Shown: positions 13,120 to 31,776 of the stretch, in pieces | Layout: every line of letters starts with the position of its first letter | Position numbering within the stretch: position 1 is the stretch's first letter | Assembly (NCBI GenBank): GCA_034190585.1 | Contig: JAXIOB010000004.1 | Span: 1 to 39,167 of the forward strand | Origin: Candidatus Asbonarchaeaceae archaeon | Lineage (GTDB): Archaea; Nanohalarchaeota; Nanosalinia; Nanosalinales; Nanohalalkaliarchaeaceae | DNA length: 39,167 bases | Direction of reading: 5' to 3' | The notes under the pieces: model-generated | Seen by the model: the letters and a program-made list of their open reading frames with translations, nothing else | Told to the model about the DNA's origin: nothing | The model's database searches: none | Position numbers and translations under genes: made by a program

Positions 13120-13899
13120 TCATTCCTGTGGGGCTATGACGCTGCCGAACGTCTCTCCATCTAACGCGTCCCTGATATTTCCTTCCGTGGTTCCTGAGAA
13201 AATATGCCCTTGCTGCTCGTATTCAAACAGTGAACGAACCTTGTTTTCCATTCCCCCGCTCGCATCGTAGCGCGCCGATGGACTGAATACTGAGCTGTCG
13301 AATGATTCTATCGTATCTAGCTTCGTGGCATTGTCCTCCGCAGGGGTTCGGTCGTAAACACCGTCAACGTCAGTTGCGTGGAGCACGATATCTGCGTCGA
13401 TCTCCTGAGCCATCGCTGCGGCCAGTACGTCGCCTGATAACACTGCTGCCGTCTTCTTTTCATCATAGGCCGGAACCCCGAAGAGAACGGGAACTATTCC
13501 TTGAGAAATAAGCGGGCAAATAGCCTTAGTGTAAAAATTGTCCAACCGTCCTTCGACCATCATGGCAGCTGTTGACGGCTGAGCGGGAAAGGCAGGAATT
13601 CCTGCCTCCTGAAGCTTGCTTGTGAAAATGCAATTGAGCTCGTTTTGCAGCCGCTGGATGCGGGCGAAATCCTGTCTGTTTTGGGTAGATGTTATCCCGG
13701 TCCACAAACCTGTGTTTGACGCAGCAGGGTGGCCATACGACCCCGACCCGTGGACCAGTACAATACTGTCATCGAAGGAGGTTATCTCCTCCGCTGCCCG
13801 CTGCATCATCCTCCGGTCAGGCTGCGGCGAATCAGAGTACTTGTCAGTTATTATACTGCCGCCAACTTTTAGCACAACACTTTCGTATGAATCAGGCAT
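13120..13899 (-). CDS. ipk: Isopentenyl phosphate kinase (amino-acid-kinase fold; IPK/FomA family)
   Basis: Motifs are VVLKVGGSIITDK, IVLVHGSGSYGHPAAS and LHATDVDGVYDRTP...DASGGMENKV. The length is 259 aa. Confidence 0.8.
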   Translation of the reverse strand: MPDSYESVVLKVGGSIITDKYSDSPQPDRRMMQRAAEEITSFDDSIVLVHGSGSYGHPAASNTGLWTGITSTQNRQDFARIQRLQNELNCIFTSKLQEAGIPAFPAQPSTAAMMVEGRLDNFYTKAICPLISQGIVPVLFGVPAYDEKKTAAVLSGDVLAAAMAQEIDADIVLHATDVDGVYDRTPAEDNATKLDTIESFDSSVFSPSARYDASGGMENKVRSLFEYEQQGHIFSGTTEGNIRDALDGETFGSVIAPQE

Positions 13900-15814: not shown

Positions 15815-16708
15815 GTGGCGCCTGTACAAATCAGTAAGTTCCTATCCCGAACTGCACAGCTCTACCGCGTACGAGATTGGAAATCAGCGGTAGGGCTTGC
15901 AGTTCTTGGATGGTTGACCACTGGCGGCCGTCCAGCTCACCTTGTCACCGCAACTGCAACATCAGCGCTTCTCTTGGCGTTTTCCTTTGCGTTTAATGAT
16001 ATTTGCGATGCCAGATACACCAATGAGTCAACTAGGTTAGGAGAGCTGTATCGGGATCAGCCGGAGGCGGCGACGGGGGTAGCAATCCTGCCGCTGGTGG
16101 CAGCTGTTCTGTTGCTATGGACGCTGCCTCCACGGGTAGCAGTGGCTGCTGCCGGGTTTGTCTTGTTGACGATACAGTATTCAGCTCCCCCGTTCCAGTT
16201 AACAGCCCGACCTGTGCTAGGGACAATCACTAATGTCATTTCAGCACTACTACTTATTCTGGTCGGGGCATCATCCCGTCCCCTTACACCAGCGACAGTG
16301 ATTCTGATACTCGTCTATACATGGTTCTTCATATTGGCAGAACTGTTACACCAGGTCGACGACTTTGACGAGGACCAGGCTGCCGGAAGATCCACCCTTG
16401 CAATTATTATCGGTCCTGAGCAGTTGCATAAAATCTTGAAAATCGGGTGTTTAGCTGTCTCTATCGTAGCTGCTATGACGGCGCTATTCCTCCCTGAGAT
16501 CGCCGTCCTACTCGTCGTGGCGTCCCTATTTAACCTTCTTCGGGTCGTTCGTCTAAACGGCCTCAGCCCTCTTGAGTTAGGGGACTGCAGGGAGCGGTTG
16601 TTTGGGACAGTAGAGGGCCTTGTATACCTCATTGTGCTCTCCATCCCACTGGCTGGTCAATCAACACAACAGGTTATTCCTGTTCTTGTAGGCGGTGGTG
16701 TAGGGTGA
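15815..16708 (+). CDS. UbiA-family membrane prenyltransferase (paralogue 1)
   Basis: Polytopic membrane protein. The first Asp motif is AFNDICDARY and the second is HQVDDFDEDQAAGRSTLA. The start is GTG. Its stop overlaps the next gene's start (GTGA at 16705-16708). Confidence 0.75.
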   Translation: MAPVQISKFLSRTAQLYRVRDWKSAVGLAVLGWLTTGGRPAHLVTATATSALLLAFSFAFNDICDARYTNESTRLGELYRDQPEAATGVAILPLVAAVLLLWTLPPRVAVAAAGFVLLTIQYSAPPFQLTARPVLGTITNVISALLLILVGASSRPLTPATVILILVYTWFFILAELLHQVDDFDEDQAAGRSTLAIIIGPEQLHKILKIGCLAVSIVAAMTALFLPEIAVLLVVASLFNLLRVVRLNGLSPLELGDCRERLFGTVEGLVYLIVLSIPLAGQSTQQVIPVLVGGGVG

Positions 16709-18647: not shown

Positions 18648-18654
18648 TATTAAT
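18648..18654 (+). promoter_or_regulatory. TATA-like box about 22-28 nt upstream of ATG 18676 (suggests a leaderless or short-leader mRNA)
   Basis: tattaat lies within the 177-nt intergenic spacer. Confidence 0.3.
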
Positions 18655-18675: not shown

Positions 18676-19863
18676 ATGGTTAGTGAGAGTGAATTCGAGC
18701 AATACGTAGGACGACCAGGATATTACCAAAGTATGAAGGTGAGTGGGTCTGAGGGGAATTATCTGGTTTCTCAGGAGGGTAGAAAATTTATTGATCTTAT
18801 CGCGGGGTGGTGCGTTGTCAATGCAGGATACGGGCGTGAGGAGATTATCTCTCGCATGGCGGAACATGCCGAACAGGCGGCCTACGTGAAGACGTCCTAT
18901 ATTGACGAGCGAACTGTGCAATTGGCCGAGCGGCTAGCTCAGCTAGCACCTGGCAATCTTCGGCAAACGTTTAGAGTGCCCAGCGGCACCGAAGCTGTAG
19001 AGATTTCAATCAAGGCTGCAAGGCTTTACACTGGGAAAGACACCATAATAAGTAACGAATTGGCGTATCACGGGACAGCGTATGGTGCGATGAGTGCAGG
19101 ATATGATGAACTAGGACAGCCATTCACTCCGTTAGATCCGGGGTTTGATCGGGTACCAGTTCCAGACTTTACAGATGCGTGGTACGACGAGTTTGCGGAG
19201 CGGATGTCGAAGGGGGACGTAGCTGCATACCTCTCAGAGACAGTTCTCACCCATCAGGGAGTCGTTATTCCGCCGAATGATCACTATGAACGGGTGAGTG
19301 AAATCTGTAATGCGAACGATGCACTTCTGATACTGGATGAGGTAGCGAACGGGTTTGGACGGACAGGGAAAATGTTTGCCGCCGACCACTATGGCGTGAC
19401 TCCGGATATAATGGCGCTCGCAAAGGGGATGAGTTCCGGGTACGCTCCCGCTGGTGGGGCTATCATGGCCCCAGATATCGGGGAGGAGATGTCTACCACT
19501 AAAATGAGCGCCTACTCAACGTTTGGCTGGGTTCCCGCAGCTGTTGGAGCTGTGCAGGCGAATATCGACATTTTACAGGACGAAGGACTTTCTACGGGTC
19601 AGGAGAATCTCGGGGATACCCTCGAGGAGGAGCTGATTCGTATCGACGGTGTGCGAGAGGTTCGACGGAAAGGATTGCTTGTTGGCGTCGTGCTTGAGGA
19701 TTCAACTGCCGCCGATGCGCGGGCGGCCGCATCACAGAACGGTGTTCTTGCCGGAACGACCAATGATGGACGCGTTCTCCTTCTTGCCCCGCCGCTCAAC
19801 GTTGAAGAGGCCTATGTGGCGGAAGGCATCCAGCGCCTCGAGAACGCGATCGAGGTGAGGTAA
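18676..19863 (+). CDS. Class III (omega-type) PLP-dependent aminotransferase
   Basis: Motifs are GWCVVNAGYGREEI, PSGTEAVEISIKAAR, LILDEVANGFGRTGKMFA and PDIMALAKGMSSGYAP (PLP lysine context). Confidence 0.9.
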   Translation: MVSESEFEQYVGRPGYYQSMKVSGSEGNYLVSQEGRKFIDLIAGWCVVNAGYGREEIISRMAEHAEQAAYVKTSYIDERTVQLAERLAQLAPGNLRQTFRVPSGTEAVEISIKAARLYTGKDTIISNELAYHGTAYGAMSAGYDELGQPFTPLDPGFDRVPVPDFTDAWYDEFAERMSKGDVAAYLSETVLTHQGVVIPPNDHYERVSEICNANDALLILDEVANGFGRTGKMFAADHYGVTPDIMALAKGMSSGYAPAGGAIMAPDIGEEMSTTKMSAYSTFGWVPAAVGAVQANIDILQDEGLSTGQENLGDTLEEELIRIDGVREVRRKGLLVGVVLEDSTAADARAAASQNGVLAGTTNDGRVLLLAPPLNVEEAYVAEGIQRLENAIEVR

Positions 19864-20508
19864 TTGGAGGCGGTGGTAAACGTAGGAGGAGCGACCTTGC
19901 GTGATTCAGATGTGCTCGGCCCCGTAGTGGAAGAACTGGAGGCTGTTGACGAACAGCTAATACTGGTAGCAGGGGGAGGAGGACTTGTCGATGAAATACG
20001 ACGATTGGATACATCCCATGACTTACCGGCCTCGCTGTGCCACTGGGCTGCTATCAGGTGTATGGACATTAACGGTGAGGTACTGGCGTCCAGATCTCAG
20101 CGGTTTGTGCCCGTCAGCCTTGCGAACCAAATCGAGAGTGCGTGGAGGGAAGACGAAATCCCTGTACTACTTCCGCACGACATTCTAAAAGAGAAAAATC
20201 CGTTGCCTGTGTCGTGGGCGGTGACTTCTGATTCAATTTCTGTGTGGGCAGCCTCCTACTTTGGATTAGACGCTGCGATACTTCTTAAGCAGGTCAAAGG
20301 GATAACCCAGGATGGTGAACTCCGGGGTGAGATTGGAGCGGCCGAGGTACGTGACAGTGATACAGACGTGGTGGATCCGGTCTTGCCGCAGGTTATCATT
20401 CGTCACGGAGTCCAGGCATCAATAGTCTCATCACGCCATCCTGGTCGTGTAGCGAGCGCGATACGCGGTGAGCCGTGTCAGGGGACTCTCATTCTTCCAG
20501 AGGTCTAA
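19864..20508 (+). CDS. Small amino-acid-kinase-fold protein (uridylate-kinase-related); candidate MfnE-like small-molecule phosphate kinase
   Basis: The TTG start directly abuts the aminotransferase stop. It has VVNVGGATL (the KxGGS-type loop), LILVAGGGGLVDEIR and PVSWAVTSDSISVWAASYFGLDAAILLKQVKGI. At 214 aa it is shorter than UMP kinase or IPK. Confidence 0.5.
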   Translation: MEAVVNVGGATLRDSDVLGPVVEELEAVDEQLILVAGGGGLVDEIRRLDTSHDLPASLCHWAAIRCMDINGEVLASRSQRFVPVSLANQIESAWREDEIPVLLPHDILKEKNPLPVSWAVTSDSISVWAASYFGLDAAILLKQVKGITQDGELRGEIGAAEVRDSDTDVVDPVLPQVIIRHGVQASIVSSRHPGRVASAIRGEPCQGTLILPEV

Positions 20509-20638
20509 AGAGGAATCTATTCGGTGTCTATATCAGCCCCAATTTTTCTGGACGTCTTGAAGAATTCTGATTCCCGGCCCAGTATACCGGCTCTGAAGAC
20601 GGAAAAAATGCCGGAAATACACCTAAGATTTAATAATT

Positions 20639-20647
20639 CAGTAGTAG
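20639..20647 (+). promoter_or_regulatory. TATA-like box about 27 nt upstream of TTG 20670
   Basis: tttaataat lies in the 161-nt spacer. Confidence 0.3.
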
Positions 20648-20669
20648 GAACAAAGAATGGAGAGCGCCC

Positions 20670-21500
20670 TTGAATCTGAAGCGTTTCTATAGGGTTTCTG
20701 ATTGGTATCCAAATATGGGGATCGCGGTAGTCGGTGTTCTAAGTGCAGGTGTTGGCGCTGGAAACGTGGTTTCAGCCGCTGTTGCGTTGGTCCAGGTGTT
20801 CCTTGTTCAGCTCCACTCGTTCAGTATGAATAACTATTACGACGCCAGATATTGGAAAGAAAATAACTACATACAGGAGCTATTAGAGCACGGGACGCCT
20901 CGTTGGAAAATATATTTTTACGGCCACATACCTCTTCTCTTGGCGGCGCTCTTTTTACCGGTTTCAGGGATATTCACACTACTTCTTCTGGGATATGCCG
21001 CCCTCTTCTACGTATACCAGGGCCCGCCGCGACTGAAGATGCACTGGGCCTCCTCTCTGGTGCTGAACGCGATCCCGCTCGGACTGATAATATACCTTCA
21101 TCCTTATCTGGTTACGTCAGGACGTCTCGAAACCACAGGAATATTCTTCGCGGTGATGTTCACATTCTACATGGCATTCTTCGAGATCGCACATCAACTT
21201 CAGCACGATAAGATAGAGAGCAGTCATTCATTGGTCGACGTATTTGGGCGGGAAACCTCTGTTAAAATAGGGATGATCGCCCTAACCATCCCTGCGCTAC
21301 TTGGACTGTTGTTGTATTTCGTTGCAACCCTGCCGGCGTCGATAAGTGCAGTAGCGGTAGGATTCACAGCTTTGCGGCTTTATACACTCATCGATATCGG
21401 AACTGATCCCGACGCCGTGCAAACTATAAGAGGCTCTTGGCATAAGTTCTATTCTGCATTTGAGGGCGCAATTTACGTAATTTTACTGGCTGTGATGTAG
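20670..21500 (+). CDS. UbiA-family membrane protein, divergent paralogue 2 with eroded Asp-rich motifs
   Basis: Polytopic. It aligns by eye to paralogue 1: SMNNYYDARYWKEN versus AFNDICDARYTNES, and EIAHQLQHDKIESSHSLVDVFG versus ELLHQVDDFDEDQAAGRSTLAIIIG. The start is TTG; an internal Met lies at 20715. Confidence 0.55.
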   Translation: MNLKRFYRVSDWYPNMGIAVVGVLSAGVGAGNVVSAAVALVQVFLVQLHSFSMNNYYDARYWKENNYIQELLEHGTPRWKIYFYGHIPLLLAALFLPVSGIFTLLLLGYAALFYVYQGPPRLKMHWASSLVLNAIPLGLIIYLHPYLVTSGRLETTGIFFAVMFTFYMAFFEIAHQLQHDKIESSHSLVDVFGRETSVKIGMIALTIPALLGLLLYFVATLPASISAVAVGFTALRLYTLIDIGTDPDAVQTIRGSWHKFYSAFEGAIYVILLAVM

Positions 21501-25028: not shown

Positions 25029-25700
25029 ATGGTAGTTGAGAGATTTGAAAGGGTTTCAATACCACTTTTGGCGGTTTTGGTTATTACTTTCGGCGCTATT
25101 GCAGCGATAAATTCTTCCCCCCAAGTTTCTGATGGCGATAATTTGTCATCACAAGAAATTGTATCTAAAGATCCTAATTTGTCAGCATTCCAGGATCTCG
25201 GATCTCCTGAGGATGGTGAACGGGTGCGTTGGTTGGCGACCGATGAAGTTGGTCCCTGGCACATTGATGGGAGCGCGGGAATCACAAGTTTAGATGCTGG
25301 CAACCGAGTAGTGCTTCATCCGACGGGAGGTAATTGGAGGAATTCAGTTGACTCTGCAATCAGACAAACTGTGGAGCTTCCATCAGGTGAACCGCTGACC
25401 GCTGTTTTAAAGGCTAGGAATCCTGCTTCTGAATGGCGGTCCACGAAAAGTCGCTGTATTAACAGTCTTGTTACACTTGCAGTGGCAAAGAATGATGTGG
25501 GAAGCACCCCTGTTTACAATCGAACTATTGTAGGAGATAAACCAAGAAAGATTACGATGGACGTATCCCGGTTCGCAGGTGAAACTGTGCAGTTGGCCGC
25601 TCTGGCTGACGCTGCAGGTAAAGGATGTGGAAGATGGAACGCTGAATTCACGCTAATATCTTCGCTGTACATACAAACGGAGGAGGACACCGATTTATGA
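25029..25700 (+). CDS. Membrane-anchored secreted protein of unknown function; paralogous module to ORF 22623-23267
   Basis: The N-terminal TM is IPLLAVLVITFGAIAAI. The protein also contains IRQTVELPSGEPLTAV...RC...VSRFAGETVQLAALADAAGKGCGRWNAEF, and its stop overlaps the next start (ATGA at 25697-25700). Confidence 0.5.
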   Translation: MVVERFERVSIPLLAVLVITFGAIAAINSSPQVSDGDNLSSQEIVSKDPNLSAFQDLGSPEDGERVRWLATDEVGPWHIDGSAGITSLDAGNRVVLHPTGGNWRNSVDSAIRQTVELPSGEPLTAVLKARNPASEWRSTKSRCINSLVTLAVAKNDVGSTPVYNRTIVGDKPRKITMDVSRFAGETVQLAALADAAGKGCGRWNAEFTLISSLYIQTEEDTDL

Positions 25701-27595
25701 ATAGGTCAATCGTTCGTGCCTTGCGATTCCGAGGTGTTCAGTTTTTCAAACTGGTCAAGAATCGTTACGACCAATTTAAAGCAGCAGTTTTCAATCATTC
25801 GACCCGTGTTTTTATCTCCGGTATAGTTATCATCGCGCTCGTACTGCGGGCATGGAATCTTGGTCGTCGACCGATGTGGACGGATGAGGCCGTTTACGCC
25901 GTTATGGGCCAGAAGATAGCTAAAGGCGCATTGCTCCCTGTATGGCCGCTTTCTGAGCGTGTATTTGCTGGACAACCGCCGCTAGTTATCCATCTGATGT
26001 CTATTCCGTATCATATAGTCCAGTCTGTTCCGTCGGCAGTACATTTTAGGATGGTAGCAGTATTGGCCGGTGTCGCGACAGTATATGTATGCTATCGAAT
26101 TGGCGCCTCTATATATAATGAGAAGGTGGGCCTGATAGCCGCTTTCCTAATCGCAGTATCGCCTAATCATCTTCTCTACTCACGACAAGCTCTTCCCCAC
26201 TCTATCGGCATCCTTGCCTTCGTCTCAGTCGCATATGTCCTCATCAAATACTGTCGTCACGGAGAAAAAAAGTATATCTGGGCGACGGGAGCAGGGTCGG
26301 TGCTCGCAATAAGTCTCCACTATCTCAATGTTTTACTCATACCGTTGGTAGCTCTAACACTTATTTGGCGGTACATCTCGGAGATCAAAAAATTTAGATA
26401 TCGACGGCGATGGGCCGCTTGGGGTGCGATAAATATCGGATCTGCTGCCGCATATATCATCTATTTCATGAACTTTACTGGGGGCGCACGGACGGGAAGA
26501 AATCCTTTCCGAGGAGAAGTATCCATCCAGAACCCGGTCACTGTGGTATCCGCGCTCTCGGAATTTCTGTCGAGGCAAATCGAATGGATAGTCTCTCTTG
26601 GTATTGCCTCGTATGCAGCGAAAGGAATCGATTTCCTGAGATATTACGGGAATTTATCTAACCTGTTCCTCCCTGTTTTCCTGGCAGGTGTTGGCGTATA
26701 TTTCAGTGCGACGGAGAAAAGGGGTATTCTGTGGTATCCAATCGCCCTGTTTGCTTCAGTATTTGGCGTATTGATTTTCATCGTCTATCCGTTCTACCAG
26801 AAAATAGGGATTTCGCCGGTCCGTTCACACTCATTTCTCATACCGCCAATGTTCATTTTAGCCGCTTATGGTATAGAGAAACTGAACGGATGGAAAAATT
26901 TAGGCTACATCTTATTGGCCTTATTTACAGTCGTGTCGATGCTTCATTTCCCACTTATCGCGACTGGAAATGTAGTGGCGGTGACAACGGAAGGATACCA
27001 TGAGTTCACGGTTGAGATCGGTAAATCTATTTTCAATACGGTCAATACTAAACTGCTGATTATTACAGGGATGAGAGGGCTCGAGTCAAGGATTAGAGCG
27101 CAGGAGTATTTCAAGCAGACATCGTCGATTGTTTGTAGTGGAGAGCATTACAGGCCGTTGTTCTGCTTTTCTCGCCATCCCGTCGGATATAATGATGCGA
27201 AAAATTGGCAACAGCCAGTCAATCATATCTTAACGCAAGGAAAGGTTCCAAATAAGCTAGTTGCTTCCATGTTTGTATCGCATGTCGCGCCTGTCCTGTA
27301 TTATTTGCAACGCGCCGATCCAATTACACGTCTTAGGTATGGATATGATTTCAGCCATCAATATCGTGGAAACGGAAATAACTCGATTCAATCGTTGTCT
27401 TGTAATATAGACAAGCGACAGTGCAATGTTACAGCATGGTTGAGGGGTGAGAAGTCTGTATGGTTCGTTCTGGATAACGTGCGGTCTAAATATCAGTTGA
27501 ACCAGTGGGAAACGGAATATATGAAGAGGCGATGTAAAACCAAAAGATTTTCGTATACTGAGGTGATAAAGTGCACTGGTAATAGGACAGAATGA
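25697..27595 (+). CDS. GT-C fold membrane glycosyltransferase (ArnT / PMT_2 / GT39-like), paralogue 2
   Basis: It has LRAWNLGRRPMWTDEAVYAV (the DE loop motif) and RIGASIYNEKVGLIAAFLIAVSPNHLLYSRQ. The C-terminal domain shares CSGEHYRPLFCFSRHPVGYNDAKNW with paralogue 1. Confidence 0.8.
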   Translation: MNRSIVRALRFRGVQFFKLVKNRYDQFKAAVFNHSTRVFISGIVIIALVLRAWNLGRRPMWTDEAVYAVMGQKIAKGALLPVWPLSERVFAGQPPLVIHLMSIPYHIVQSVPSAVHFRMVAVLAGVATVYVCYRIGASIYNEKVGLIAAFLIAVSPNHLLYSRQALPHSIGILAFVSVAYVLIKYCRHGEKKYIWATGAGSVLAISLHYLNVLLIPLVALTLIWRYISEIKKFRYRRRWAAWGAINIGSAAAYIIYFMNFTGGARTGRNPFRGEVSIQNPVTVVSALSEFLSRQIEWIVSLGIASYAAKGIDFLRYYGNLSNLFLPVFLAGVGVYFSATEKRGILWYPIALFASVFGVLIFIVYPFYQKIGISPVRSHSFLIPPMFILAAYGIEKLNGWKNLGYILLALFTVVSMLHFPLIATGNVVAVTTEGYHEFTVEIGKSIFNTVNTKLLIITGMRGLESRIRAQEYFKQTSSIVCSGEHYRPLFCFSRHPVGYNDAKNWQQPVNHILTQGKVPNKLVASMFVSHVAPVLYYLQRADPITRLRYGYDFSHQYRGNGNNSIQSLSCNIDKRQCNVTAWLRGEKSVWFVLDNVRSKYQLNQWETEYMKRRCKTKRFSYTEVIKCTGNRTE

Positions 27596-27693: not shown

Positions 27694-28582
27694 ATGAACT
27701 GTGAGATATGCGATAGTCCAATGCGAGTAGCCTATTCTGGGAGAGATTGCGTATTTACCAGTACACCGGACCGGAGATTTTCGATTTTTCAGTGCTCAGC
27801 ATGTGGGTTCGGTAAGCGACTTCCTCAACCTGATAATCTCCAGAAGTATTATCCCGAAGAATATTATGATTATTTTTCAGTAATAAGGGAGCGTGAATAC
27901 AGCCTGCGATTTCGATGCTGGTACGAACGCAAATTCTCCCCGAATCTACTGCTTCCTCAGACTAAAGGTAGACTATTAGAAATAGGATTCGGGGGAGGGT
28001 ACAGGCTGGCGGAGTTAGATAGCGATGGGTGGGATGTGGTGGGAATTGATTCGAACGAGGATGCTATTGAGAAAGCTGCTGAAAAGTCTAACGCCGAGCT
28101 GCTACAAGGAACTCTGACTGATACGGAACCGGAATTTTCAGCTGGCGAATTTGACCTGGTATTGATGGAGATGACTCTCGAACATATCAAGAACCCGTTT
28201 CAGGCCCTCAAAGAAATTAAACGGATATTAGATTCGGAAGGATTTGTGGTCATAAAATGTTCAAATATTGACGCCTTATTTCGAAAAATTTTTTCCAAAG
28301 TACTGGCAGGGGTACGATATTCCCAGACACTTTTACTATTACACGCCAAGAGCACTAGAGAGTTTGATGGAAAAAATGGGATTCTAATTGGAAGATGAGA
28401 GCCATGACTACCGCTCGACGCAATTAACTGCAAACTCCAACAAATTCCTTAGTGACGCTTATGATATTAAAATTCGGCCTACTATCTTAGGTGGAATACT
28501 TTTCACATTAGGAATTATGTCCGGTGCGTTAGGTAAACCTAGTTATTTTGTACACCGATGTAGATTAGGTGACAACGATTGA
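27694..28582 (+). pseudogene. Class I SAM-dependent methyltransferase with an N-terminal Cys4 zinc ribbon, disrupted by one frameshift and one in-frame TAA
   Basis: The zinc ribbon is CEICDSPM...CSACGF. SAM motif I is LLEIGFGGGYRLAEL. After FRKIF (an A5T6 run at 28284-28294) the family-typical sequence continues in frame 2 (PKYWQGYDIPRHFYYYTPRALESLMEKMGF). It then hits TAA at 28385-28387 and continues in the same frame as the track ORF 28388-28582. Confidence 0.65.
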
Positions 28583-29368: not shown

Positions 29369-29971
29369 TCATTGGATTGTGGTTGGAGGCCTCAGCTGAA
29401 ATATGTTGTGGCATCGACCCCCTGCTGATTCTACATACCTCGACGCTGATCGCATCAGTCTCTCGTCTGGATTGGCGGTTGGTCGGCCAGTGTAGTCGCC
29501 GGACCCAGATTTGACTTTTTGCAGTGCGTCATCTATCACTAAGTCATCTCGAAGAGCGAACACAGCTGTCGCGACGGCTACGGATCTGCTCTCACCTGCG
29601 GCGCAGTGAAGGAGAATTTTTCTCTCATTGCCGATTTCTCTTACCACTGCCGACGCAGCACTATCAAACATTGTCTGTGCATTGCATCCGTCTCGTAACG
29701 GACGGTGGATATCCGTGGTAGCTGTGGAACTTGCAGTCAGCGTCACGACCGTCTCAATTCCCAGTTCGTCGTGCCGGCTCTCCTGGCGAGCATCTACCAG
29801 ATCGCCGATGTATAAGTGATCTGAGAGCCGGTCCATAGATCGGCACCGGTCCCGACGAATACGGGCACGTTGAAGCGGTAAGGCGATAGACTCTATGAGC
29901 CAGTTCGACGGCCTCAAATCCATACGAACATATCTCGCCATATATTTATGTATCCTCGGTTGCGCGAACAT
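29369..29971 (-). CDS. Cys-based (HCX5R) dual-specificity / PTP-superfamily phosphatase
   Basis: The active-site loop is LLHCAAGESRSVAVATAVFAL. The protein also contains DHLYIGDL, and its stop lies 1 nt upstream of the mfnB start, so the two genes look co-transcribed. The likely true start is ATG 29836 (MDRLSDHLYIGDL); the 5' extension to 29971 is Arg-rich and dubious. Confidence 0.75.
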   Translation of the reverse strand: MFAQPRIHKYMARYVRMDLRPSNWLIESIALPLQRARIRRDRCRSMDRLSDHLYIGDLVDARQESRHDELGIETVVTLTASSTATTDIHRPLRDGCNAQTMFDSAASAVVREIGNERKILLHCAAGESRSVAVATAVFALRDDLVIDDALQKVKSGSGDYTGRPTANPDERLMRSASRYVESAGGRCHNIFQLRPPTTIQ

Positions 29972-30012: not shown

Positions 30013-31776
30013 ATGGCAGGGATCAGCGGTGTCTGGAGTCCGAACGGAGAATCGGGGAAAGAAGCTATACTACCGATGCTGCGTCCGATGACGAGATCCG
30101 GTAGGAGCTGTGAAGTATTCTCAGCTGAGGATATGCACCTTGGTGTCCGCTCCTCTGAGTCCTGCGGATTCGATGATGGAAACCGTATTGTGGCGGTAGA
30201 CGGAGAAGTATATAACAAAAAAGCACTTTGCGAAACTTCCTTCAGCGACGATGATTCTACTGAGCGAATCGTAGCTCAGGCATACGAGGAACAGGGGGAG
30301 GATCTTTTCAACGAACTAGCGGGAGATTATGCGCTCGCCCTGTTGGACTGTGACCGGTCGAAACTGATTTTAGACACGGGATTAGCGAATAACAAAAATT
30401 TTTTCTACAGTCTCATGGGTTCCGACCTGATTTTCGCTTCCGAGCTCAAGGGGCTGATGCAGGCAGGCGCAATCGACCCATCGATTGACAGGTCGTCCAT
30501 CGGAAATCTTTTGACGTATGGCCACGTTCCAGCCCCCTTTACGCTGTTCGAAGGCCTTCGGAGACTGCCTCCGGGCGCCACTGCGATTACGACTGAGGCA
30601 GGGATGACGCTTGTGCCGGCTGGAGAGCCAAGGCAATACCCGCCTATCGAGGATTTGCCAGCGGCCGTTACATCCGTCGAACAGTCGCTCAAGGGGGCGA
30701 TCAACCGTCGTCTGAGTCAGAGCGATGATATAGGGATGATGCTGTCTGGCGGGATAGACTCTGCACTTCTCACATCATATCTCGATGAGATGGTGTCTGG
30801 TCCAGTGTCGACATTCACCGTGGGATTCGGTGAGGATCAACAGTACGCTCACAGCGTATCTGAACACGTAGGGACCGATCATTCGGAGAAAATCCTGTCG
30901 GCTGATGAGATGATCGGCCAAATACCCAAGGTGCTGTGGTGGCGCGAGTATCCTTCGAAAGATCCGGGGGTTTCACCTCTGTATCACATCGACAGCTTGA
31001 CCGACCGCACGGAGTTGATATGGGGGCAAGGCGCTGAGGAAGTTGTTATGGGGCGGCAAGATTATGTGGCGTTACACGCACTAAGTTCCGTGCCGCGGCG
31101 GCAGGCGATATCGCGCGTGTTCCACGACGCCACCCCTCCAGTGAGAAATCGGTCAAAACTGCACAGGATGTACAACCTTCTCCGTTCCCGCGGCCCGGCC
31201 GAATCGTTTACGACATTCCGCGACTCAGGCCCAAAAGATAGACAGAACTGGGCCGCGAGTGACGTGCATGTAGGGAATACATCACGGGTGCGAGCCCCCA
31301 AGAATATTCACCATCCGTGCAGCCAGTATGGGTGGACATCTCTGATAAACGGGTTCCTGAGCGATGTATTTCCTGCTCCAGAACGCCGGTTGATGAGCCC
31401 GTTTCTTGATTCTCAAGTTCTTGATACAGGTTATCGTATCTCATCACGGTTGCATCTTCGGGATGGACGGCCGCGCTACCTTCTTCGAAAACTTGGGGCA
31501 AAGCGTCTTCCTCAACAAGTCACTGGTCGCGGCCGGGATTCATGGGCGTCTCAGACCCGTAATGTTGTTTTGAATAATTCGTCAATCCTTCTTGCAATCG
31601 CGGATCGTCTCCAGGATCGCAATATTATCACTGAATCAGCGCGGACAATCGTGCAGAGGCAGCCACACCGCTGGGGAAAGAATCTTTGGACATTAGTTAA
31701 TCTTGAACTATTTCTAGAGATTTTCATCGATGAAGACTTCGAGGAGGAGCCGCCCGGGATCGATTATTTTATTTAA
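30013..31776 (+). CDS. Asparagine synthase (AsnB)-family amidotransferase/adenylating enzyme lacking the N-terminal Cys nucleophile
   Basis: The N-terminus is MAGISGVW where canonical enzymes have MCGI. It has VDGEVYN where canonical enzymes have NGEIYN. The PP-loop MLSGGIDSALLTSYL is intact. The length is 587 aa. Confidence 0.85.
   Translation: MAGISGVWSPNGESGKEAILPMLRPMTRSGRSCEVFSAEDMHLGVRSSESCGFDDGNRIVAVDGEVYNKKALCETSFSDDDSTERIVAQAYEEQGEDLFNELAGDYALALLDCDRSKLILDTGLANNKNFFYSLMGSDLIFASELKGLMQAGAIDPSIDRSSIGNLLTYGHVPAPFTLFEGLRRLPPGATAITTEAGMTLVPAGEPRQYPPIEDLPAAVTSVEQSLKGAINRRLSQSDDIGMMLSGGIDSALLTSYLDEMVSGPVSTFTVGFGEDQQYAHSVSEHVGTDHSEKILSADEMIGQIPKVLWWREYPSKDPGVSPLYHIDSLTDRTELIWGQGAEEVVMGRQDYVALHALSSVPRRQAISRVFHDATPPVRNRSKLHRMYNLLRSRGPAESFTTFRDSGPKDRQNWAASDVHVGNTSRVRAPKNIHHPCSQYGWTSLINGFLSDVFPAPERRLMSPFLDSQVLDTGYRISSRLHLRDGRPRYLLRKLGAKRLPQQVTGRGRDSWASQTRNVVLNNSSILLAIADRLQDRNIITESARTIVQRQPHRWGKNLWTLVNLELFLEIFIDEDFEEEPPGIDYFI

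Follow-up and report, generated by a model that had tools for sequence, protein, structure and literature searches.

A divergent MfnE-family kinase in a conserved core with UbiA- and MfnB-type genes in nanohaloarchaea, and a class III aminotransferase as its candidate partner in one lineage

The furan-building enzymes of methanofuran biosynthesis have been regarded as serving only the one-carbon (C1) carriers of methanogens and methylotrophs. They include the synthase MfnB (MJ1099), the aminotransferase MfnC (MJ0684), a class I/II enzyme, and the kinase MfnE (MJ0458), with MfnF as a further member of the pathway. In Methylorubrum extorquens, the corresponding methylofuran genes are Orf22 (MfnB), Orf21 (MfnE) and Orf9 (MfnF), together with Orf17 (PF00977), a member of the TIGR00734-type, or Orf17/MJ_0703, family. 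Methylofuran synthesis requires Orf17, probably early in the pathway, and the function of this protein is unknown (PMC8141765). The MfnC-type transaminase of bacteria is still unidentified (PMC8141765). Here we analyzed a 39,167-nt stretch of DNA from a Candidatus Asbonarchaeaceae archaeon (assembly GCA_034190585.1, contig JAXIOB010000004.1, positions 1 to 39,167 of the forward strand, our contig C1; hereafter, the window), in which a class III aminotransferase gene abuts a gene for a 214-aa kinase (Table 1). The source metagenome-assembled genome (MAG; 0.57 Mb, 73% complete, ~63% G+C) comes from a salt lake metagenome, and the closest named relatives of the window genes are found in Nanohaloarchaeota MAGs. 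Results showed that the kinase, although divergent, truly belongs to the MfnE family, as a homologue rather than an analogue, and that kinase, UbiA and MfnB genes form a conserved three-gene core, which a minority of the nanohaloarchaea and certain uncultured organisms of low G+C content possess.

The first-pass annotation of the window had read the 214-aa open reading frame (ORF) as MfnE-like rather than as PyrH or isopentenyl phosphate kinase (IPK), and profile comparison gave MfnE as the clear best match: NCBIfam MfnE (NF040622) scored 94.9 bits over model positions 3-203 of 211, versus at most 18 bits for other amino-acid-kinase models. Seven other nanohaloarchaeal orthologues behaved in the same way, with 97-137 bits for MfnE and no more than 61 bits for the PyrH, ArgB and IPK models. 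The best PDB sequence match was MfnE of Methanococcus vannielii (7QRH; E 1.1e-17, the runner-up having E 0.016), and the AlphaFold2 (AF2) model of the kinase, which is very confident (predicted local distance difference test score of 97) and has an alpha/beta pattern, superposed on 7QRH with template-modeling (TM) scores of 0.90/0.92 and a 1.8-A root-mean-square deviation (rmsd), compared with TM ~0.8 and rmsd >3 A for UMP kinases. All of the top 50 PDB fold matches listed were amino-acid-kinase-fold proteins. When one genome was taken per species, the nearest named relatives were MfnE proteins of methanogens, Archaeoglobi, Bathyarchaeia, Asgard archaea, planctomycetes and others. The family signature SWxVTSDSI is present in the window kinase, as are all of the residues that are invariant in a 36-sequence alignment (G8, G9, G37-39, R46, H60, A63, W118, T121, D123, I125 and D171), and the motifs VVNVGGATL, VAGGGG and TSDS singled out in the first-pass annotation lie at residues 4-12, 35-40 and 121-124. 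PyrH, IPK and other amino-acid-kinase subfamilies were rejected as identities for this ORF on profile and fold. The earlier argument that 214 aa is too short for PyrH did not hold up, since archaeal UMP kinase chains among the fold matches measure ~210-226 residues; length therefore does not exclude PyrH, whereas the profiles and the structure do. Overall, the assignment to MfnE now has firmer grounds than when it was proposed, namely profile, structure, signature and a strict co-occurrence with MfnB. Like MJ0458, 7QRH and the bacterial Orf21, the window kinase has the fold, the family signature, a length of ~210 aa and a genomic tie to MfnB. It shares only ~25-30% identity with them, however, carries an Asn at a position where they have Lys, is partnered by a UbiA membrane enzyme rather than by MfnF, and resides in a host without detected formylmethanofuran enzymes.

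Two observations weigh against a straightforward assignment of MfnE activity. The window kinase scores 95 bits, within a nanohaloarchaeal range of 95-137, against an NCBIfam MfnE equivalog cut-off of 300. However, bacterial MfnE homologues score 48-100 bits, one of them inside a planctomycete tetrahydromethanopterin (H4MPT)/methylofuran cluster that also holds FTR, MCH, an ATP-grasp ligase and a Hydantoinase_A (MfnF-type) gene. The nanohaloarchaeal kinases thus score higher than these bacterial proteins, and the 300-bit value does not delimit the MfnE family; it appears to be tuned to orthologues nearer the model. Secondly, the Lys of the KxGG motif, which in amino-acid-kinase enzymes aids phosphoryl transfer, is replaced by Asn7 (codon 19882-19884) in the window kinase and in its orthologues from three other genomes (G002, G003 and G050), while it is Lys in all 32 other aligned sequences. 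These four are exactly the kinases with a class III aminotransferase gene upstream, and activity or substrate may differ as a result of the substitution. The same pattern is what would be expected if the kinases of this sub-branch were inactive, with a binding or scaffold role, or if the cassette were decaying. We regard this as highly improbable, considering that the other invariant residues have been kept across 40-50% divergence in four genomes, that the ORFs are intact and the AF2 model very confident, and that the block containing the kinase has been transferred and retained (see below). In quick trees, the UbiA-linked kinases may be one clade beside the canonical MfnE sequences or several lineages among them: in a first tree, 30 canonical MfnE sequences formed a clade with 95% support and the nanohaloarchaeal kinases lay outside it, and in a second, to which metagenome sequences had been added, the backbone was unresolved and UbiA-linked kinases fell into three groups among canonical clades. 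We predict that the kinase turns a furan-methyl phosphate into the corresponding diphosphate.

The genomic distribution of the kinase was then determined in 70 species genomes of the nanohaloarchaeal class. Eight contained it, i.e., the window's genome (G000), G002, G003, G024, G025, G050, G053 and G054, which together span five genera and three families. MfnB (PF04476) was present in exactly these eight genomes and in 0 of the remaining 62, and close orthologues of the window's UbiA-family gene were confined to the same eight, with one remoter match (36% identity) in G047. The UbiA gene lies immediately 3' of the kinase gene in 8/8 carriers. A metagenome scan with an alignment of these UbiA proteins yielded five further loci (28-49% G+C), bringing the number of cassettes to 13; kinase and UbiA adjoin in all of them. 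The order kinase, UbiA, MfnB was found in four of the five metagenome loci; in the fifth (a 2.2-kb contig), MfnB is upstream of the kinase and is encoded on the other strand. Among the eight carriers, MfnB follows UbiA directly or one gene on in six, is on a separate short contig in G024, and in the window is 8.1 kb downstream on the opposite strand, in agreement with the earlier report of an mfnB gene 8 kb away. The window MfnB keeps the segments IIDxKNP, YIKVGL and DTAxKDGKTLFD, which align with active-site regions of MJ1099. Near canonical MfnE genes, MfnB occurred within 6 kb at 21 of 77 loci, so that the pairing of MfnE with MfnB is ancestral to the family; neither a UbiA2 homologue nor a class III aminotransferase gene was found within 6 kb of canonical MfnE at any of the 77. 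In G050, two successive MfnB-like ORFs were observed (L016 4602-5093 and 5103-5795), of which the first is an N-terminal-type piece of 163 aa and the second a full copy of 230 aa.

Kinase and UbiA genes overlap by 4 nt in 5/8 nanohaloarchaeal cassettes and are separated in the window by a 161-nt spacer (20509-20669), in which a TATA-like element, TTTAATAA, is a possible separate promoter for the UbiA gene. The cassette UbiA proteins carry the motifs N(D/N)YYD...E and ExxHQxxH. As the first of these, the window, G002 and G050 have NNYYD, and the remaining cassette orthologues have NDYYD. Both UbiA genes of the window (20670-21500 and 15815-16708) have ExxHQ where a second Asp-rich motif is usual. 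The UbiA superfamily includes enzymes with non-prenyl diphosphate donors, such as mycobacterial Rv3806c, a decaprenyl-phosphate phosphoribosyltransferase, and the cassette could follow the same logic: a soluble enzyme makes a diphosphate, a UbiA-fold enzyme moves the activated group to a lipid, and a GT-C gene lies nearby. By analogy, the cassette UbiA is predicted to use a furan-methyl diphosphate in place of MfnF, although it has no close sequence relation to Rv3806c-type enzymes and differs from them in its second motif, ExxHQxxH. Alternatively, the kinase might act on another phosphate monoester, e.g., an isoprenoid phosphate, and so provide UbiA with a prenyl diphosphate. An IPK, a polyprenyl diphosphate synthase and the second UbiA gene are nearby in the window, IPK and UMP kinase are similar-size enzymes of the same fold that also phosphorylate phosphates, and both the sub-cut-off score and the Lys-to-Asn change would suit such a substrate. 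However, the co-occurrence with MfnB (8/8 versus 0/62) and its adjoining position in most cassettes are hard to reconcile with an isoprenoid role, fold and profile are far nearer to MfnE than to IPK or PyrH, and a canonical IPK is already encoded at 13120-13899. We consider it very unlikely that the kinase acts on a monoester other than a furan phosphate.

Enzymes that make or use methanofuran were also looked for. FTR (PF01913) and MfnF (PF01968) were not found in G000, G002, G003, G024 or G025, apart from a PF01968 match in G002 that stayed under the threshold (14 bits, E 0.007), nor was MfnA found in the window's genome; the searched MAGs are 72-85% complete, and G025 is a closed genome of 1.03 Mb. 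With neither FTR nor MfnF in five carrier genomes, the product is evidently not methanofuran. In one natural protein (P0218, 566 aa), a Hydantoinase_A domain of the MfnF type is fused to an MfnE-type kinase domain, which indicates that the kinase normally passes its product to the next transferase. Longer MfnE homologues were also checked for fusions to an aminotransferase; all that was seen was the MfnF-MfnE fusion, along with N-terminal extensions that match no Pfam family. Genes for Polysacc_synt (flippase-like), glycosyltransferase 2 (GT2), GT-C and radical S-adenosylmethionine (SAM) proteins recur around the cassettes, which would fit a membrane or surface destination for the product.

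We propose the following four-step flow. MfnB would condense two glyceraldehyde-3-phosphates to the furan aldehyde phosphate 4-HFC-P; an aminotransferase would convert the aldehyde to an aminomethyl group, giving F1-P; the kinase would add a second phosphate, giving F1-PP; and UbiA, replacing MfnF, would take F1-PP as an electrophilic donor, comparable to prenyl diphosphates and phosphoribosyl diphosphate, and attach the furan unit either to a lipid of the membrane or to a surface precursor that is linked to a lipid. In the sub-branch to which the window belongs, amination would most likely be carried out by the upstream, probably co-translated class III enzyme. For this explanation as a whole, comprising an MfnE-family kinase, the core and the four-step flow, we estimate a probability of roughly 0.45.

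As had been noted in the first-pass annotation, the TTG start of the kinase directly follows the aminotransferase stop codon, with no spacer between them (19863/19864). This junction is not an assembly artifact, since an independent contig from a second study covers 18999-20342 across it with zero differences. The TTG start is itself supported by two agreeing lines of evidence: kinase orthologues all start 2-5 residues ahead of the VV(N/K)xGG strand, and strand 1 of the AF2 model comprises residues 3-7. The public gene call for the kinase, in comparison, begins at Leu12 and gives 203 aa, cutting off strand 1; a Shine-Dalgarno-like GGAGGA formed by the Gly-Gly codons of the kinase probably misled the gene caller. 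The database call for the aminotransferase is likewise shorter (376 versus 395 aa), and the long start is backed by orthologues that align from residue 4-5. Near its 3' end, the aminotransferase gene contains a Shine-Dalgarno-like sequence, GAGGTGAGG, which is followed after 3 nt by the kinase TTG, and the two genes are probably translationally coupled. Upstream of the aminotransferase ATG, the element TATTAAT may represent an archaeal promoter with a leaderless transcript.

The aminotransferase matches PF00202 with 254 bits (residues 20-392, profile positions 11-403 of 403) and PF00155 with merely 21.7 bits on a fragment; thus, it shows no MfnC-type (class I/II) homology. Lys250, which would bind pyridoxal phosphate (PLP), and Asp221, the pyridine-nitrogen Asp, are invariant in the aminotransferase alignment. 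That the enzyme might be a close orthologue of a housekeeping aminotransferase, a concern raised in the first-pass annotation, was not borne out: against the NCBIfam equivalog and subfamily models, argD (subfamily) scored 241 bits versus a cut-off of 410 and PatA 228 versus 612, and all 25 models listed were far below their cut-offs. ArgD, PatA/YgjG, GabT, BioA and the ornithine and beta-alanine-pyruvate aminotransferases were accordingly rejected as identities. The nearest relatives are ~10 nanohaloarchaeal proteins with 48-59% identity, after which identity drops to 38% or less, in bacteria of the candidate phyla radiation (CPR) and DPANN archaea; the neighborhoods of the 35-38% CPR/DPANN homologues showed no shared pattern (glutamate dehydrogenase, acetyltransferases, ribosomal genes). 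An invariant Arg100 was observed ahead of the SGTEA segment throughout the aminotransferase clade, in a survey of residues ~100 and 365-372. Since the window enzyme is class III and not class I/II, it could only be an analogue of MfnC: both are PLP enzymes, and the proposed reaction, 4-HFC-P to F1-P, and its place ahead of the kinase step would be the same. Among solved class III homologues are the putrescine aminotransferase YgjG (4UOX, E 9e-56) and an enzyme of Shimia marina (8WQJ, E 6e-42). Throughout the clade of the window aminotransferase, CPR/DPANN homologues included, the Arg found ahead of the PPL motif in YgjG, presumably a carboxylate binder, is missing. Furan aldehyde amination is known for related class III enzymes, the Shimia marina omega-transaminase SMTA (8WQJ) aminating both furfural and hydroxymethylfurfural (PMC11286754). 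The window enzyme shares with SMTA and YgjG the family and the PLP-associated Lys and Asp; it is a distant homologue of both, and its presumed substrate would be phosphorylated.

The evidence tying the aminotransferase to the kinase is a shared block. The two genes adjoin in 4/13 cassettes, all in one kinase sub-branch, with a gap of 0 nt in the window's genome, an overlap of 4 nt in G003 and a gap of 33 nt in G002 and G050; the three pieces into which the aminotransferase is split in G003 are due to a 10-N scaffold gap, and a frameshift was rejected as the cause. Aminotransferase, kinase and UbiA are 84/78/82% identical between G002 (L012 3853-6539) and G050 (L016 179-2859), which belong to different GTDB families, whereas the window shares only 58/40/57% with G002, a member of its own genus. 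Cross-family identity thus exceeds within-genus identity, which indicates that the three genes were transferred as a unit. The 24-kb stretch of the window that includes aminotransferase and kinase has ~50% G+C, with flanks of 62-67%, which together with the identity pattern indicates lateral transfer of the block.

Other points weigh against an MfnC-like role. The class III gene is absent near the kinase in 9/13 cassettes, no PF00202 gene was found anywhere in G053, G054 or G024, and since the four linked cassettes form one clade, their adjacency counts as a single evolutionary event. In addition, aminotransferase orthologues with 48-55% identity occupy another conserved neighborhood (SufBD, cytidine deaminase), without the kinase, on five contigs, and one such genome (G007, 71% complete) yielded neither kinase nor MfnB. 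Considering also that 35-38% homologues are common in CPR and DPANN genomes in unrelated contexts, the aminotransferase could be a general nitrogen-metabolism enzyme that landed beside the kinase by chance, the abutting stop and start reflecting small-genome compaction. However, a quick tree separated the SufBD-linked enzymes, as a clade with 97% support, from the kinase-linked ones, and residues 277-279, adjoining the conserved YxTFGW active-site segment, distinguish one group from the other, which is compatible with a change of specificity. Adjacency to the kinase has furthermore survived 40-60% sequence divergence as well as transfer between families. We therefore judge a chance association to be distinctly improbable.

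A further point against an MfnC-like role is that, of five carriers tested, four (G000, G002, G025 and G053, not G024) have a class I/II aminotransferase of ~380 aa, which belongs to MfnC's own family and could perform the amination. In G025 a DegT-type aminotransferase gene lies 2.3 kb upstream of the kinase. These findings, and the fact that most cassettes lack a class III enzyme, would also be expected if the class III enzyme belonged to the pathway but acted on a different carbonyl, in the acceptor or in a later intermediate, with the furan aldehyde aminated by a class I/II enzyme or not at all. Indeed, accessory genes vary by cassette type (ligase-like, asparagine-synthase-like, methyltransferase, radical SAM), and the products of the cassettes probably differ. 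Against such a role, the aminotransferase gene is directly 5' of the kinase gene, the order expected of consecutive steps, it travels with kinase and UbiA as a block, and no other obvious carbonyl-generating enzyme is encoded within these three genes. Action on another carbonyl seems unlikely to us. The first-pass annotation had read the abutting pair as the next two steps of furan activation. The kinase part of that reading stands, with membership of the MfnE family; the aminotransferase part does not follow to the same extent, given its absence from 9/13 cassettes and its SufBD-linked orthologues. The aminotransferase is not part of the core; it is a lineage-specific addition, for which an MfnC-like role is no more than plausible.

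The cassettes that lack the aminotransferase offer a further lead. A HisA/HisF-like gene is located beside the kinase in the aminotransferase-free cassettes of G025, G024, G053 and G054 and of the metagenome loci L110-L112, and 3 kb off in L113 (e.g., L013 9282-9992, L014 6522-7259, L020 10996-11706 and L110 4567-5271). Its best model is TIGR00734, with 143-160 bits over the full length, and the same family also recurs near canonical MfnE genes. Conversely, no PF00977 gene was found in the four aminotransferase-carrying genomes (G000, G002, G003 and G050), which are 72-78% complete. As in M. extorquens, MfnB and MfnE homologues are clustered here, and most UbiA-linked cassettes have an Orf17-type gene beside the kinase; the window differs in having no PF00977 gene, with a class III aminotransferase in its place, and in having UbiA for MfnF. 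Since this complementarity traces to one branch of the kinase tree, it is a lead and not a statistic. A bolder proposal, to which we would give rather long odds, is that the aminotransferase took over the job of the Orf17/MJ0703-type protein; Orf17 would then be responsible or required for the nitrogen of the furan aldehyde, i.e., the bacterial "MfnC" step, and the aminomethylfuran diphosphate of the cassette would be attached by UbiA to a lipid of the membrane or to a surface glycan that is linked to a lipid.

Other genes of the window may extend the system. Weak homologues of the 223-aa protein follow MfnB in G002 and G050, and a weak homologue of the GT-C membrane transferase lies downstream in G002, on which basis both genes are tentatively included in the cassette system. 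The window also shares asparagine-synthase-like, phosphatase-like and methyltransferase genes with G053 and G054. In other cassettes, a protein of 408-443 aa, with a weak match to an AMP-binding (adenylate-forming ligase) signature, is encoded between or after UbiA and MfnB (L012 6794-8020 in G002, L016 3093-4346 in G050 and L013 12204-13535 in G025), and no homologue of it was found in the window's genome.

Table 1. Genes and sequence elements of the aminotransferase-kinase region, with positions in the 39,167-nt window.
Feature	Position	Strand	Evidence and remarks
TATA-like box TATTAAT, ~25 nt upstream of aminotransferase ATG	18648-18654	+	Read from sequence
Class III (PF00202) PLP aminotransferase, 395 aa	18676-19863	+	ATG start; TAA stop 19861-19863; PF00202 2.1e-75
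Shine-Dalgarno-like GAGGTGAGG, within aminotransferase 3' end, 3 nt before kinase TTG	19852-19860	+	Read from sequence
MfnE-family kinase (amino-acid-kinase fold), 214 aa	19864-20508	+	TTG start; PF00696 1.7e-12
TATA-like TTTAATAA, in 161-nt kinase-UbiA spacer	20630-20637	+	Read from sequence
Divergent UbiA-family membrane transferase, 276 aa	20670-21500	+	PF01040 4.5e-10; UbiA fold in Atlas
223-aa protein	25029-25700	+	No Pfam/NCBIfam match; weak homologues in G002 and G050 (BLASTP 25%, E 2e-7 to 7e-10)
GT-C (PMT_2/Agl23-like) membrane transferase, overlapping end of 223-aa gene	25697-27595	+	PF13231 3.5e-11; TIGR03663 1.5e-11
SAM-dependent methyltransferase	27694-28398	+	PF08241 4.8e-18; 37-39% homologues in L020 and L021 (G053, G054)
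MfnB-type 4-HFC-P synthase, 237 aa	28654-29367	-	PF04476 1.9e-67; 4RC1 (MJ1099) 3.3e-49
Dual-specificity-phosphatase-like protein, downstream of mfnB	29369-29971	-	PF00782 1.1e-7, under Pfam cut-off; 40-42% homologues in L020 and L021
Asparagine-synthase-like amidotransferase	30013-31776	+	PF00733 3.1e-37; 38% homologues in L020 and L021

A literature search found no paper linking nanohaloarchaea to Mfn genes and none for structure 7QRH, nor did it find a description of the class III aminotransferase variant, the block transfer, the Lys-to-Asn change or the Orf17-type complementarity, all four of which we regard as new. In these cassettes, a furan synthase and an activating kinase would be coupled to a membrane UbiA enzyme in symbionts that have reduced genomes and no C1 pathway, a pattern that points to a furan-bearing membrane or surface compound not described before. 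For the amination step, the class III aminotransferase offers a non-homologous candidate enzyme, and its complementarity with Orf17/MJ0703-type genes may provide a handle on the unexplained essential role of that family.

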